Shown here one piece after another: positions 11,500 to 47,359 of a stretch of 64,000 nucleotides of DNA. Positions within the stretch are counted from its first letter, which is position 1. Every line of letters begins with the position of its first letter. Origin of the DNA: an uncultured Nitrososphaerota archaeon (lineage in GTDB: Archaea > Thermoproteota > Nitrososphaeria > Nitrososphaerales > CADDZS01); contig CAWCYI010000006.1 of NCBI GenBank assembly GCA_963799845.1, positions 1,536,001 through 1,600,000 of the forward strand, in the 5' to 3' direction. Under the pieces are notes generated by a model that saw only the letters and a list, made by a program, of their open reading frames with translations, did no database searches and was not told the origin of the DNA. The position numbers and the translations under genes were made by a program.

Positions 11500-11874
11500 C
11501 TAGTCTGCGTTTTCCAATAGGGAAATTTTATGCATCGCCGCTTTGATTATCGCAACGAGACTTCCGGATTCGAGGATGTCGAGCTCGAACCGCTTCTTGA
11601 TCTCCTGGGTGATTGCCCGCTCGATGGCCCATGCTCCAATGCCGAAGGTGGCTTCGATCGATTTGAGAAAGCCTTCCGGATCCCTCAAAATTCCCTTGTC
11701 GCTCGTTCCGTTTTCCTTCATCTTGCTGATCAGCAGCATCCTCCAGTAGATCTTCCTCTCACCGTCCCGTCCCAAAACTCCCAACCCCTCATCAATACAC
11801 TCGATGAGAGCCATCTCGTCCAGACTGTTCACTATGGAACGAGGTTTCGGTTTGATTTTGGAATCTGGACTCAA
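11500..11874 (-). CDS. Small helical hypothetical protein, paralogous in pattern to 47444-47818
   Basis: 'IDEGLGVLG...PEGFLKSIEATFG' vs 'SIEAVLG...PELLVKALENLLG'. Confidence 0.6.
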   Translation of the reverse strand: MSPDSKIKPKPRSIVNSLDEMALIECIDEGLGVLGRDGERKIYWRMLLISKMKENGTSDKGILRDPEGFLKSIEATFGIGAWAIERAITQEIKKRFELDILESGSLVAIIKAAMHKISLLENAD

Positions 11875-11954
11875 GTAATTGCAAACGCTCGTTTAGGGTA
11901 ACGGCTAATGGTTTGAAATATCCCGCTCATGCCGTTTATTGCCTTAGGGAGTGA

Positions 11955-12150
11955 TAATCTATGTTAGGAATCCGGGTTCTGTCCAGTCTTCGTCGTGTGG
12001 ATAAGAAGCTGCGCCAATGACTTATCCCCGCGATTACGACATAACTTGGAAGCATCAACTTTCAGGAGTACTCCGTCTTTACAAGGTTCCTGTACCATCG
12101 CTTCACCTGCTTCCCCTTTCTTAGACTGGAGGAACCTCAGCCAGCCTCTG
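11955..12150 (-). ncRNA. Predicted omegaRNA (reRNA) scaffold plus guide, overlapping the tnpB 3' end
   Basis: TnpB guide RNAs are known to overlap the gene 3' end/right end; hairpins GGATAAG..CTTATCC; segment conserved in a second copy at 17271-17461. Boundaries approximate. Confidence 0.6.
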
Positions 12151-13232
12151 TGAGAAATGTTCATGACAGCGGCGACATCTCTATCCCACCATCTCCCACA
12201 CCTTACACACCAGAGCTTACTTCTGTGTACTCTACTGAATCTGTCCTCTTGGAGTCTCTCCCCGCATATTGGACAGAGTTTAGAAGTACCTCTGGTCTCT
12301 GCTTTAGTTAACTGAATTACTGGAACTCCTTCCCATGCAGCCATGTATTCTATTTGTCTTTTGATCTCGTTCCATGGTACCGAATTCATCCTCGCGCGAA
12401 AGTTCTTACCTTGATAATTCCCTTTTCTGTACAGGTTACGCAGTCCATCAATTTGTTCAAATACGATCGCTCCTCGGCCTTCCTTGGCTAGATCTACGAC
12501 ATTCTTCGAAACTTTGTGAAGAATCTGATTTACTCTTTCAGATCTCCGCCTTCCGTATTTTATTGTCAAGATTCTTCGTATTCTGTCATCGTTTCGCTTG
12601 AACGACCTCAACACATCTCTTGTCGATTTTGCAATTTCCTCGACTTTCTTCATGTCGAATAGTACCACTTTATCTGCATTCCCGCAGGTAACATTCGATG
12701 CGTTTCTGTCAATGCCGAAGAAACATTCAGGTTTGAAAGACGCAACAACCTTTCTGAGGGAAAACGAAAGACTGGTGGGAGTCAATGTGAACGACCTCAC
12801 TTCAATTCTTTCCTTTTCGATTGTCTGGATTGTGTGGTTCGTGAGTGGAATTCTTACGATCTTATCTTTCTTGGATATTCGAAAACAAAGGGATTGATCT
12901 TTGATCTTGAACTGAGAGCACGACACCAAAAGCGGTTTCTTGAGACGTGGGTCCTTTGACGTTATTCCCCTCCGTTCTGACTTCTTTCTCGACGAGAGAA
13001 TACCTGCAGCTTTTGAAATTGCGGTCAACCGGTAATAGGATAGAACGTGGAAATACTTCTGCTTCATGTTGGAGTAAGCAAGCAAAGATAGTCTCTTTAA
13101 CGAGGAAACATTTGTTTCGAGTCCAATCCTGATACAATCATTTACCATAGACCTGAATTCATTCATCAGTTCCAGTAACTGCGGAGATGGACTGGCAAGT
13201 GACTGTCTTACTGACTTCAGGGCGAAGACCAT
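11964..13232 (-). CDS. tnpB: TnpB/Cas12f-like RNA-guided endonuclease
   Basis: RuvC-I GIDRN, RuvC-II IVFEQI, zinc finger CPICG...CVRCG, RuvC-III DRDVAAVMNI; catalytic D/E/D intact. Confidence 0.95.
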   Translation of the reverse strand: MVFALKSVRQSLASPSPQLLELMNEFRSMVNDCIRIGLETNVSSLKRLSLLAYSNMKQKYFHVLSYYRLTAISKAAGILSSRKKSERRGITSKDPRLKKPLLVSCSQFKIKDQSLCFRISKKDKIVRIPLTNHTIQTIEKERIEVRSFTLTPTSLSFSLRKVVASFKPECFFGIDRNASNVTCGNADKVVLFDMKKVEEIAKSTRDVLRSFKRNDDRIRRILTIKYGRRRSERVNQILHKVSKNVVDLAKEGRGAIVFEQIDGLRNLYRKGNYQGKNFRARMNSVPWNEIKRQIEYMAAWEGVPVIQLTKAETRGTSKLCPICGERLQEDRFSRVHRSKLWCVRCGRWWDRDVAAVMNISHRGWLRFLQSKKGEAGEAMVQEPCKDGVLLKVDASKLCRNRGDKSLAQLLIHTTKTGQNPDS

Positions 13233-13399
13233 CTTCTTGAGACTTCCGCTAGAGAGATCGACGAACAGCTAGGGGTGCAATAAAATTCGAGCGTTTGATG
13301 AAACTACACCATGGGTAAAGAATAAGCCATGATCCCCTTGGAAATTGGTAAGAAGCTTCAATTCGTTACTCATCTCAAAACCGACAAAGACTGGACAGA
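11975..13399 (-). mobile_element. Non-autonomous tnpB element bounded by TIRs and an 8-9 bp direct repeat
   Basis: TCTGTCCAGTCTTCGTCG (11978-11995) is inverted at 13382-13399 (17/18 match); GGAATCCG flanks both ends (11967-11974, 13400-13407). Confidence 0.75.
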
Positions 13400-13584
13400 G
13401 GAATCCGCAAGAATCTCTCGATACTTTCGTAGACAAGCAAAACTGAATTTTTCAAAATGAGTAAAAGAAATCTGCGTATATGAAACGAAAGAAATTTCGG
13501 AAAGTTTGACGATAAACAGAAGAATGTTCTATTGAATTCAGACAGGAACTGTCTCTTTCGAAGGATGATTTTTAGATCAAAGGC

Positions 13585-17268: not shown

Positions 17269-17461
17269 TATTCCGTCGAGTATTCGTCGGTTGGATAAGA
17301 AGTCGTGTCAGCTACTTATTCCCCTGATGGCTAGTGAACTTGGAAGCATCGACTTCCAAGATGAGAGGTGGATCATCTGTATGTCGTCGTTCCAGGATCA
17401 TCGTTTCACCTGTGCCCCTCTTAGACTGGTCGAAGCTCGGCCAGCCTTTGTGAACACGTTT
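17269..17461 (-). mobile_element. Remnant of a second tnpB-element 3' end (orphan omegaRNA-like locus)
   Basis: Colinear similarity to 11977-12160: TGGATAAGAAG, AACTTGGAAGCATC, TTCACCTG, CTTAGACTGG, GCCAGCCT; degenerate TIR TTCCGTCGAGTATTCGTCG. Confidence 0.8.
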
Positions 17462-17629
17462 CGGCTATCAATCTAGGAATATGGAAAGTAAAGGCCTGTG
17501 GCTGTCCTGTAAGTTCGAAGAAGAAAAATTTCCGACTATAGAAATTCAGGCCATCGTAGATGAAACACGCACGTTTTCCATTGTTGACAAAAAAATGGTT
17601 AAATAATTCAGATTCTCGGTTCTCCTGAC

Positions 17630-46716: not shown

Positions 46717-47359
46717 AGTTCTGTCCATTCTCCGTCGGATTTCCAGAATTTTCTCCGTGTCTAAAATCGTCGGATCTGCAAATTAGTTGGTTAGAGTTTA
46801 TTAGAGAATGACTTGACCATTGTCAAGAACCTGCGAGAGATTATGAAACGGGAATCCAATGTGCATGAAGGATTTCTTTCAGGGGCAGGGTTCTTTGGAG
46901 CAGTCTCAATAACGGCTCTAGTTCTAGTTCTTTCGTTTCCATCTACATTCCAAGTTAATGGCTGGTACTTTAGCAGTCTTCTCTCTTTGTTAGCAATAGC
47001 AAGCTCAACTCTGTAATTGCTACATTTTCTTCTATCGTAGTCTGGGGTAGGGAGTCTTATGGCGAAGAATTTAGGGAAGGCATAAGGAAATTTACAGCTG
47101 TAACTCTGGCAATTTCCATGTGTGCCTTGTTGATAGTCATACCGATGATCCTAGCTCCGGTTTCGTCTTTCGCCATGATCGTCGCTGCCCTCTTTGAGGG
47201 CATATCCCTTCTTGTGTATCTTTGGACAGCCCTGAAGTTTCGTCCCCATAAGTGATCGGCCTCAAGCATCTGGAGGCTTTCGTTAATTTTTGGACTTCCA
47301 ACCGTCGAATTTAGACGGCCGCAAGTTTCATACCTGACCGCCAAAGATTAGACAGAACT
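46717..47359. mobile_element. Candidate TIR-bounded derivative of the tnpB element family carrying a passenger gene
   Basis: AGTTCTGTCCATTCTCCGTCGG and inverted CCGCCAAAGATTAGACAGAACT match the tnpB-element ends at 18-19/22. Confidence 0.6.
46843..47255 (+). CDS. Four-TM membrane protein (frameshift near 47010)
   Basis: ORF 46813-47016 continues in another frame 'SVIATFSSIVVWG...LLVYLWTALKFRPHK*'. Confidence 0.6.

Follow-up and report, generated by a model that had tools for sequence, protein, structure and literature searches.

How does a tnpB gene with no tnpA beside it come to lie between two arms of a short inverted repeat, with an 8-bp direct repeat just outside both ends, and does its product take part in the spread of the element? 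The usual view is that TnpB benefits IS605 and IS607 elements by cleaving the donor site, which is empty and scarless once the element has left. Its rarity with DDE transposons, and how it might work there, were posed as a question in a 2026 review of OMEGA systems (PMC13565253). The case described here comes from a soil archaeon, in a stretch of 64,000 nucleotides of its DNA (hereafter the window). We conclude that window positions 11975-13399 are very probably a non-autonomous member of an archaeal IS6-like inverted-repeat family, with an OMEGA module (tnpB plus omegaRNA) as its only cargo. The features of the locus, in window coordinates, are the following.

11975-13399, minus strand: the whole non-autonomous element, with the right end (RE, tnpB 3' end) at 11975 and the left end (LE, tnpB 5' end) at 13399
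11964-13232, minus strand: tnpB ORF, 422 aa, with intact RuvC triad and zinc finger; stop codon in the flank
11975-11995, plus strand: terminal inverted repeat of RE, GGTTCTGTCCAGTCTTCGTCG, which falls within the last part of the tnpB ORF and forms the 3' terminus of the scaffold predicted for the omegaRNA
13382-13399, minus strand: LE terminal inverted repeat TCTGTCCAGTCTTTGTCG, a 17/18 match to RE, without the outer GGT
13233-13381, minus strand: leader that runs from the LE repeat to the start codon of tnpB and holds an A/T-rich box (TTTTATT) kept in all three of the closest copies; a putative promoter
11975-12113, minus strand: predicted omegaRNA scaffold, 139 nt, which opens with the 5' arm of a helix that covaries and finishes with the RE repeat
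11951-11974, minus strand: predicted guide region, comprising the target-site duplication (TSD) copy and 16 nt of flank, as spanned by an RNA-library contig
11967-11974, no strand: TSD copy beside RE, GGAATCCG on the plus strand and CGGATTCC on the tnpB strand; expected to supply guide positions 1-8
13400-13407, no strand: TSD copy beside LE, recognised from the direct repeat and a single-copy empty site
13408-13411, minus strand: TAM-like motif CTTG (tnpB strand; CAAG on the plus strand), directly 5' of the LE-side duplication, with T at -2 and G at -1

The element is 1,425 bp long and tnpB is the only gene aboard. Homology to a second copy in the same genome (G000:C4:1514997-1516432) ceases exactly at its boundaries, and in an alignment with a copy in genome G003 homology likewise ends at 11975 and 13399. 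The second copy is frameshifted, and a third consists of a 3' stump only, at window positions 17270-17464. The arms of the inverted repeat (11978-11995 and 13382-13399) are 18 nt long and complementary at 17 of 18 positions; allowing up to three mismatches, the 18-mer occurs five times in the window where 0.15 occurrences are expected. At the tnpB-3' end a GGT tip (11975-11977) precedes the repeat, and this right end (GGTTCTGTCC) fits the IS6 pattern of a GG tip and a cTGTt motif. The GGT is absent from the tnpB-5' end of the window copy.

The tnpB ORF runs through the terminal repeat and the adjacent 8-mer and terminates at TAA (11964-11966), the flank triplet that comes immediately after the 8-mer. 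The predicted protein carries a D...E...D triad and a CxxC...CxxC zinc finger located between RuvC-II and RuvC-III. In an alignment of 20 sequences, D175 and D352 are invariant, and E259, C320, C323, C342 and C345 are conserved in at least 90%. The protein matches the Pfam family Cas12f1-like_TNB with 54.2 bits (cut-off 26.3), and structures of ISDra2 TnpB match residues 196-362 with E = 1.4e-7. The best whole-protein match, NCBIfam guided_TnpB (NF040570), scores 84.8 bits, which is under its 100-bit cut-off. A preliminary description of this locus had reported an intact-RuvC tnpB, an 18-bp inverted repeat with 17 matches, an ORF that passes the element end and takes its stop codon from the flank, and a duplicated GGAATCCG just outside both ends that reaches 9 bp with one extra base. 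All of these are borne out at the positions given here.

The direct repeat is AGGAATCCG, at 11966-11974 and 13399-13407. As a duplication it is 8 bp long (GGAATCCG at 11967-11974 and 13400-13407), the ninth base, an A, being part of the left-end repeat on one side. In a congeneric genome, the orthologous site (G003:C92) carries GGAATCTG once and holds no element, with flanks that are 84% identical to the window over 181 nt and 81% over 142 nt; G004:C156 is also without the element at the orthologous locus. The element entered an intergenic site with an 8-bp target duplication, and the site is still vacant in a congener. In four public sequencing runs no contig skips the element, hence none represents an empty allele, and their DNA contigs confirm occupied junctions only.

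Relatives are encoded in at least 490 of at least 585 candidate stretches and are common among Nitrososphaeria and Bathyarchaeia of soil and freshwater. From a public archaeal set of 80 loci, 8 were excluded because the match was truncated or an end motif was missing, which left 72 evaluable loci. Flank repeats are perfect at 18 of these and match at seven of eight positions at 9 more, compared with 3 perfect and 23 at 7/8 or better among 5,112 mismatched-pair controls. The 27 elements verified in this way are 1,232-1,358 bp long, and 26 distinct 8-mers occur among the 27. In kin genomes, where two left-end anchors were placed by eye, the flank repeats are perfect at 8 of 21 loci, 7/8 at two and 6/8 at one, with no perfect repeat among 420 mismatched-pair controls. 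The preliminary description had proposed that other copies might carry 8-bp duplications of different sequence and that an empty allele might hold the repeat once, and the data agree with it on both points. Among public loci with inverted repeats of at least 14/22 (n = 34), 23 have a duplication of 7/8 or better; the remaining 11 have no clear duplication, and these count against the explanation that we favor.

The window element itself contains no IS6-type DDE transposase gene. Elements that encode an IS6-like DDE protein and share its ends, as the preliminary description had suggested might exist, were found elsewhere. One locus (L093, G011:C18:16057-19142) and 10 of 47 further loci have inverted repeats of at least 17/22 and perfect 8-bp duplications, and the ends of these 11 elements start with GGTTCTG or GGCTCTG. 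They are 1,970-3,867 bp long, encode a zinc-finger DDE protein of 370-420 aa, and carry one to three extra ORFs. The best NCBIfam family for the L093 transposase is IS6 (NF033587), at 74.9 bits against a cut-off of 125; it also matches Pfam DDE_Tnp_IS240 (27.0 bits, cut-off 27) and rve_3 (29 bits, cut-off 26.5), and has an IS1/IS1595-type zinc domain. The ends of the window element (GGTTCTGT...) are the ends of these 2-3.9 kb zinc-finger DDE elements nearest IS6. None of the 11 transposase-bearing elements holds a tnpB, which argues for mobilisation in trans, and an IS6-like fragment lies within 2.5 kb of only one of the 80 tnpB loci, where it is positioned outside the element. We infer that a transposase encoded elsewhere mobilised the tnpB element, in keeping with the preliminary description in all but the name. 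That description spoke of an IS6-type enzyme; since the transposase falls under the curated IS6 threshold and the autonomous elements span 2-3.9 kb with cargo, we prefer the term IS6-like.

The genome that hosts the element (86.7% complete) yielded no intact IS6-like transposase, no match at E<=1e-30 and five fragments only, and this copy may be immobile today. Its matches to the Pfam IS240 family are a single degenerate copy, a 355-aa rve-type ORF present three times and a pair of 221-aa ORFs; the elements with 221-aa ORFs were rejected as partners by their ends, which read GGCCGAGAGC... instead of GGTTCTG. A 378-aa ORF in G000:C6:336646-339016 was likewise rejected, being a nested IS110-type gene. 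Comparison of the genome with itself by BLAST yielded about 30 repeat families, and the GGTTCTG end occurs in none of the 30 representatives checked. When GGTTCTG-type repeat pairs with duplications were sought genome-wide (G000), the search returned tnpB-less cargo elements and no transposase-bearing one.

The 3' coding region of tnpB contains a helix of seven pairs, six of which show compensatory changes among 21 sequences. A 163-nt contig is identical (0 differences) to 11951-12113, that is, to the last 139 nt of the element and 24 nt of flank; it is one contig from one metatranscriptome, and such contigs give neither strand nor RNA ends and may reflect DNA carry-over. No RNA contigs cover the remainder of the tnpB ORF, and ORF stretches uncovered in every run carry no weight. 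Single-sequence folding of the 3' region is no better than that of shuffled sequences (z = 0.07 for 220 nt and 0.32 for 139 nt), and a search of 11800-13500 against Rfam gave no match. The right-end tip at the tnpB 3' side is exact at 49 of the 72 evaluable public loci and has one mismatch at the other 23, although within the 380-nt search window a one-mismatch tip is expected by chance at about four of ten loci by our estimate, and only the exact matches are firm. The right-end tip is far better conserved than that of the left end. The earlier suggestion that the terminal repeat doubles as the 3' scaffold of an omegaRNA thus finds partial support, both in this conservation and in the contig that crosses the right-end repeat into the flank. 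The omegaRNA would derive from the terminal ~140 nt of the element, with a scaffold that closes with the right-end repeat, and its guide would open with the duplicated 8 nt and extend into the flank.

The position of the TAM-like motif bears on what such a guide might recognise. On the tnpB-5' side, outside the duplication, all 27 verified relatives have T at -2 (background frequency of T 0.35, binomial p = 5e-13) and 23 have R at -1, giving the motif TTR; the right side of the tnpB elements has no such T signal. At the TAM-like position of the empty G003 site the tnpB strand reads CATG. From these alignments, TTR is the candidate TAM of the window TnpB. Because it lies directly 5' of the other copy of the duplication, an unoccupied site reads TAM, 8-mer and flank in succession. 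Such a site would be a full target of TnpB, and neither the occupied site nor an excision footprint would be one. TnpB may then cut naive alleles, whether on sister chromosomes or on DNA entering the cell, and through recombination with the occupied copy the insertion would spread or become fixed. Drive of this kind would leave only TAM-adjacent tnpB insertions to be seen. Taken jointly, the identity of the element, its mobilisation in trans, the omegaRNA with its guide and homing on empty sites make up an account that we consider likely; for the homing step by itself, the arguments seem to us about evenly balanced.

Homing on naive alleles also differs in rationale from what is proposed for classical TnpB elements. 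IS6 elements are thought to transpose replicatively via cointegrates (PMC7986276). In the window family, three cases of two element ends exactly 8 bp apart, together with the 11 of 34 copies without duplications, are hints only of this mode. Replicative cointegrate transposition leaves no empty donor site, and the rationale of 'restorative homing' is thus not directly applicable.

Whether the window copy can still move is a separate matter. It may be a stranded relic that was inserted once by an IS6-like transposase and is now immobile, with tnpB and the omegaRNA kept by their own drive or by host use, and we hold this to be a serious possibility, if somewhat short of even. The genome retains fragments of the transposase only, its two further copies are a frameshifted one and a stump, and most TnpB clusters are described as immobile in published surveys (PMC10691335). 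On the other hand, the ORF, its catalytic residues and both copies of the duplication are intact, and an assembly of this completeness covers less than the whole genome. The preliminary description had taken the missing GGT as a sign of possible immobilisation. The GGT is truly absent from the left end; however, in verified relatives with intact duplications the left tip is exactly GGTTCTG in 4 of 27 and different in 23, so that the missing GGT alone is no proof of immobilisation and a variant tip may be tolerated.

A second alternative concerns the TAM-like motif. The T at -2 could be the target preference of the transposase, with which the TAM of TnpB has co-evolved, as in IS605 and IS607, where the TAM corresponds to the transposase target preference (PMC13565253); no TnpB-dependent filtering would then be needed. 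The autonomous elements have T at -2 on 7 of 11 transposase-3' sides, above the 0.35 background, and a weaker preference of the transposase may contribute to the signal. However, counting both sides of the transposase-bearing elements, T is at -2 on 10 of 22 (Fisher p = 7e-6 versus the tnpB elements); it is missing on 12 of 22 sides of these elements with perfect duplications, and on both sides in 4 of 11, versus 0 of 27 tnpB elements. The motif of the tnpB elements is, moreover, one-sided despite their inverted-repeat ends. We therefore find it doubtful that transposase preference accounts for the pattern without filtering by drive. That TnpB, not the transposase, imposes TTR, such that the nuclease decides which insertions succeed, either because cleavage of the vacant site carries TAM-adjacent insertions to fixation, with the duplicated 8 nt as guide seed, or by steering, is a tentative proposal that we rate as somewhat unlikely.

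Steering would mean that TnpB, attached either to the transposase or to an end of the element, joins in the choice of target and directs DDE insertion 3' of TTR, so that each new flank is a valid guide target. Cas12k-Tn7 systems, in which a relative of TnpB can steer a DDE transposase, provide a precedent, the motif is strict, occurs on one side and is confined to tnpB elements, and the left and right ends are unequal. Yet the transposase is encoded on other, tnpB-less elements, and post-insertion filtering by drive gives the same pattern by known activities; we consider steering very unlikely.

The weakest alternative, an ordinary IS1341-type (IS200/IS605) tnpB-only element served in trans by a Y1 TnpA and flanked by coincidental repeats, can draw on the protein being a TnpB and on two Y1 tnpA genes that the genome carries elsewhere, within canonical IS605-type elements, but it is already contradicted, to the point of being hardly credible, by the perfect and differing 8-bp flank repeats of 18 of 72 relatives (3 of 5,112 controls), by the empty site with one copy of the 8-mer, by ends common to DDE-encoding elements, by the absence of inverted repeats and duplications, with the same method, from the genome's own IS605-type elements, which are unrelated to the tnpB element, and by the lack of a Y1 tnpA within 2.5 kb of any of the 80 related loci. 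The earlier statement that there is no tnpA therefore holds locally and for those loci, but not for the genome as a whole. Its companion, that the element is unlike canonical IS200/IS605 members, stands: such members have no terminal inverted repeat, no duplication and a Y1 TnpA in the element or in close relatives, and the window element has an 18-bp repeat, an 8-bp duplication and relatives without neighboring Y1 genes.

The favored account, an IS6-like element mobilised in trans whose TnpB may home on empty sites, provides a concrete prokaryotic case with many independent insertions, in which the 8-bp duplication differs in sequence between insertions, the TAM-like motif stands outside it and the guide is predicted to start with the duplicated bases. 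Its right-end repeat is shared by the transposase site and the predicted RNA scaffold. Three questions become testable: whether TnpB acts as a gene drive on naive alleles for a possibly replicative DDE transposon, whether TAM adjacency is selected or targeted, and by what means a single 20-bp sequence can meet the demands of transposase and RNA scaffold alike. The family may also be a source of compact archaeal nucleases with a short T-R candidate TAM. If TnpB does impose TTR, the family would parallel Fanzor-bearing transposons in a prokaryotic, trans-mobilised form and mark a natural step from OMEGA homing towards nuclease-guided transposition. A literature search on TnpB with IS6, in Nitrososphaeria, or with inverted repeats or duplications in prokaryotes, which covered the main texts of openly readable papers, returned no account of this arrangement.

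Among known systems, the IS1341 group resembles the window element in size (~1.3-1.4 kb), in its single tnpB gene and in an omegaRNA that overlaps the 3' end of the gene, as predicted here. IS200/IS605 elements, according to the OMEGA review, lack terminal inverted repeats, do not duplicate their target and integrate immediately 3' of the TAM (PMC13565253). In contrast, the window element has both repeat and duplication, and 8 bp separate its TAM-like motif from the left end.

IS6 family traits, according to Varani et al. 2021 (PMC7986276), include 8-bp repeats, GG tips, a cTGTt motif and inverted repeats of 15-20 bp; copies without duplications are common, and clades h and i have a zinc-finger N-terminal extension. 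The window family shares the 8-bp duplications, short repeats whose right end fits the GG tip and cTGTt motif, and a DDE transposase that best matches IS6. However, typical IS6 members are ~800 bp long (about 700-900) with one gene, and the review lists only one passenger-carrying member and two MITEs (PMC7986276), whereas here the partner transposase scores under the NCBI IS6 cut-off, the autonomous elements span 2-3.9 kb and the cargo is an RNA-guided nuclease.

Links between TnpB and DDE transposases have been published, with the IS630, ISL2 and IS1031 families named in the review (PMC13565253) and the branches described by Altae-Tran et al. 2023 in PNAS (PMC10691335). As in the window element, these are prokaryotic TnpBs within symmetrical (inverted-repeat) ends, not IS605/IS607 ends, and some branches are reported to be mobile (PMC10691335, PMC13565253). 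In the passages of both papers on this association, IS6 is not among the families named and no duplication or TAM geometry is given. The transposase is described there together with TnpB, whereas none of our 11 transposase-bearing elements holds one. The window tnpB clade could equal one of the published branches DDE-1 to DDE-5.

A further parallel is with the Fanzor1 and Fanzor2* transposons, whose inverted repeats and target-site duplications were described by Bao & Jurka 2013 (PMC3627910) and Yoon et al. 2023 (PMC10711439). In the descriptions of those elements the DDE-type transposons, many of them non-autonomous, carry a nuclease of the TnpB family (PMC3627910, PMC10711439), and a terminal repeat forms part of the guide-RNA scaffold (PMC10711439), as is predicted here. 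Their hosts, however, are eukaryotes or viruses, and their duplications are mostly fixed short motifs, of which, in the review's treatment of Fanzor, the 3' copy serves as scaffold and the 5' copy belongs to the TAM (PMC13565253). In the window family, by contrast, the sequence of the 8-bp duplication varies, the TAM-like motif is located beyond it, and its 3' copy would supply the first 8 nt of the guide.

The preliminary description placed a 17/18 inverted repeat and the direct repeat AGGAATCCG at the ends of this tnpB element and had the ORF run through the right end, and all three were found. The element spans 11975–13399 (minus strand, 1,425 bp), carries no transposase gene, and has its right end on the tnpB-3' side and its left end on the tnpB-5' side. 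Its features are as follows.

11964–13232, minus strand: tnpB ORF, 422 aa
11978–11995 and 13382–13399: inverted repeat, 18 nt, 17/18 matching
11966–11974 and 13399–13407: direct repeat AGGAATCCG
11967–11974 and 13400–13407: target-site duplication (the 8-mer)

The ORF reads across the right-end repeat and the 8-mer, and its stop codon is the first flank triplet past the 8-mer. Boundaries were set by homology with a second, frameshifted copy in the same genome (G000:C4:1514997-1516432, 82% amino-acid identity to the window copy) and with a copy in the congener G003 (78% identity). In both copies, homology with the window breaks off precisely at TCTGTCC... (tnpB-5' side) and at ...ACAGAACC (tnpB-3' side). 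With these boundaries the window copy has CGGATTCC at both flanks (tnpB strand), and its left end, which is without GGT, is 3 nt shorter than its right end. The empty allele that the preliminary description sought is present in G003, a related species rather than the same population, where the orthologous locus on contig C92 has no element and one GGAATCTG between flanks 84% (181 nt) and 81% (142 nt) identical to those of the window. G004 (contig C156) is also without the element.

The encoded protein matches the Pfam Cas12f1-like TNB family (54 bits, cut-off 26.3) and, below the cut-off of 100, NCBIfam guided_TnpB (84.8 bits). Residues 196–362 are alignable with the solved ISDra2 TnpB. In an alignment of 20 sequences of the clade, D175 and D352 are invariant, and conservation reaches 90% or more at E259 and at each of the four zinc-finger cysteines; judged from these catalytic and zinc-finger residues, the nuclease therefore looks intact.

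The duplication is a family-wide property. Relatives occur in 12 of 61 kin genomes, where 21 loci have a recognisable right end; the 8-bp flank repeat is perfect in eight of these, 7/8 in two and 6/8 in one, compared with no perfect repeat in 420 mismatched left/right pairs (for two loci, L051 and L031, the left-end anchor was chosen by visual inspection while the repeat could be seen). Among public species-representative genomes, relatives are encoded in at least 490 of 585 candidate stretches. The best 80 of these come from Nitrososphaerales, Nitrosotalea, Nitrosotenuis, Nitrosopumilaceae, 'Thaumarchaeota' and Bathyarchaeia, together with one Conexivisphaerales MAG and one Methanomethylicota MAG (two loci). 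Eight were excluded for an incomplete protein match or no right-end motif, and in the remaining 72 the 8-bp repeat is perfect in 18 and 7/8 in nine (controls: perfect in 3/5,112, at least 7/8 in 23/5,112). The kin and public sets share genomes and are not independent. Distinct 8-mers number 26 in the 27 public elements with a duplication of at least 7/8. Where public inverted repeats match at 14/22 or better (34 loci), a duplication of at least 7/8 is seen in 23 and none is clear in 11.

The two ends of the 27 verified elements (from loci L109–L188) are not equally conserved. An exact GGTTCTG forms the right tip in 24/27, right tips having been chosen at no more than one mismatch, and the left tip in only 4/27, and several left ends are displaced by 1–4 nt; the 8-bp duplications adjoining the left tips are intact. 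This inequality is consistent with a right end constrained twice, as transposase site and as RNA scaffold, a reading that leaves the acceptance of such left tips by the DDE enzyme unexplained.

A canonical IS605-type origin of the window element is contradicted, since the two Y1 tnpA genes of its genome each lie within a 2.8-kb IS605-type element that also carries tnpB (G000:C4:749685-752504 and C6:728085-730901) and has, on comparison of the two copies, no inverted repeat or duplication, and since no Y1 gene lies within 2.5 kb of any of the best 80 public tnpB loci. Two TnpB lifestyles are therefore found in one genome. An IS6-like fragment lies within 2.5 kb of one of the same 80 loci, outside the element.

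The preliminary description attributed movement of the element to an IS6-type DDE transposase acting in trans, and this is supported by the 8-bp duplications and by ends held in common with IS6-like DDE elements. The genome of the window has no intact partner transposase, only five fragments of that protein, and GGTTCTG ends are absent from its approximately 30 repeat families. In the family-level relative G011, a 3,086-bp element (L093, G011:C18:16057-19142) has repeats GGTTCTGTTCATTCTTCGG..., a perfect duplication TGCGGAAA, and a gene for a 387-aa protein in whose translation SWIM-like and zinc-ribbon motifs were recognised by eye. The top NCBIfam family of this protein is IS6 (74.9 bits, E = 7e-21, cut-off 125), its Pfam matches are DDE_Tnp_IS240 (27.0 bits, cut-off 27) and rve_3 (29 bits, cut-off 26.5), and it also has an IS1/IS1595-type zinc-binding domain. 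Relatives of the transposase (E ≤ 1e-30) occur in 111/301 genomes of the class, or 108/298 leaving out three unpublished ones. Perfect 8-bp duplications with repeats of at least 17/22 were found at 10 of 47 further published transposase loci, with tips GGTTCTG, GGCTCTG, GGCTTTG or GATTTTG. The transposase-bearing elements are 1,970–3,867 bp long with one to three extra ORFs, and neither these ten nor L093 contain tnpB. They agree with the IS6 family in the traits given in a review, namely 8-bp repeats, GG tips and a cTGTt motif (PMC7986276), where just one passenger-carrying member and two MITEs are listed.

Several tnpB-less elements were also observed. At G000:C6:57916-58459, a 544-bp cargo element with GGTTCTGTAACG... 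repeats, a perfect duplication TGACGCGA and one ORF of ~150 aa is followed directly past the duplication by a new GGTTCTG end (region to 58475). Beside each of the autonomous elements L193 and L206, from other genomes, lies another family end at a distance of exactly 8 bp, and such spacing recalls, by analogy, IS26-type insertion beside an existing copy. A 2,371-bp family member (G000:C6:336646-339016; repeats 20/22, duplication AAAAAATC) contains a nested IS110-type transposase gene and a 209-aa ORF without Pfam match. In the window, two AGTTCTGTC... inverted repeats (17/22) belonging to the GGTTCTG family bound a 643-bp stretch (46717–47359); it contains small hydrophobic ORFs, has no flank duplication (2/8), and may be an old tnpB-less member or a chance repeat pair. 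Two near-identical units of ~720 bp (G000:C6:1357199-1357861 and C6:1636052-1636714), whose 221-aa ORF has a weak likeness to DDE_Tnp_IS240 (about 21–22 bits, under the cut-off), end differently (GGCCGAGAGC...) and are a second small IS6-like family, unrelated to the GGTTCTG one.

The final 220 nt of 21 elements align in conserved blocks with an invariant terminal AGAACC, and RNAalifold gives one long-range helix of seven pairs, six with compensatory changes. Folding of the element's 3' region as a single sequence is no better than shuffles, and Rfam has no match for the element. A 163-nt metatranscriptome contig, from a study other than the source of the matching DNA contigs, is identical to window 11951–12113; it crosses the right-end repeat and 24 nt of flank (the 8-mer and 16 nt), and its end inside the element falls on the 5' strand of the covarying helix. 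No RNA contigs cover the remainder of the tnpB ORF in the metatranscriptome, and a second contig corresponds to a sister tnpB copy. Such contigs, which reveal neither strand nor true ends and may include DNA, hint at an omegaRNA. A stump of a further tnpB of the same clade (window 17270–17464) retains the last ~50 codons, a stretch resembling the omegaRNA and a right-end repeat that has decayed (TCCGTCGAGTATTCGTCG), with no tip and no upstream gene.

A TAM-like motif adjoins the duplication. In all 27 public elements with a duplication of at least 7/8, T lies 2 nt upstream of the left duplication copy (background T 0.35, binomial p = 5e-13), with G or A at –1 and T or A at –3 in 23/27 each. 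The 12 nt past the right copy show no comparable base signal in these elements. By contrast, T at –2 occurs on 10/22 sides of the 11 transposase-bearing elements (3/11 upstream and 7/11 downstream of the transposase gene; Fisher test against 27/27, p = 7e-6). The motif (13408–13411) reads CTTG in the window copy and CATG at the empty G003 site, and of seven more distant members of the clade whose duplications are verified, five keep it; the exceptions, read from the flanks, are L041 and L050. A tnpB element reduced by deletion to 261 bp (L094:9602-9862, G011:C18:29602-29862; repeats 20/22, duplication 7/8) still has ATG, with T at –2, outside its duplication.

Because the TTR motif adjoins the left duplication copy, the unoccupied site consists of TTR, the 8-mer and flank, and since the guide is predicted to comprise the 8-mer and flank, this site has the geometry of a TnpB target. 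By the same geometry, pairing with the guide would be limited to 8 nt at the occupied left junction and would be no longer at an excision footprint of two 8-mers. We propose that an IS6-like transposase mobilises the tnpB element in trans; that the omegaRNA scaffold would terminate in the right-end repeat, as the preliminary description suggested, and the guide begin with the duplicated bases; that TnpB would cut naive empty alleles; and that recombination with the occupied copy would then spread or fix TAM-adjacent insertions. The motif may owe its origin to such drive selection, to a preference of the particular transposase for such targets, or to steering by TnpB.

According to Altae-Tran et al. 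(2023, PMC10691335), Y1 or serine TnpA is sometimes exchanged for DDE transposases, branches DDE-2, -3, -5 and -6 are mobile, and IS630-linked TnpBs have symmetrical ends. A 2026 review names ISL2, IS630 and IS1031 as TnpB-associated and describes such associations as rare and without explanation (PMC13565253). IS6-like TnpB elements are not named in the article texts searched, nor do these mention a variable 8-bp duplication that serves as guide seed or a TAM lying beyond the duplication; the clade may be listed in supplements. In Fanzor elements, according to Yoon et al. (2023, PMC10711439), terminal repeat and duplication form part of the RNA scaffold. The window element is thus a DDE-type transposon with a TnpB as cargo, a kind already known, and what sets it apart is that an abundant archaeal IS6-like family apparently mobilises it in trans, together with its strict TAM-like adjacency and a right end of probable dual use.
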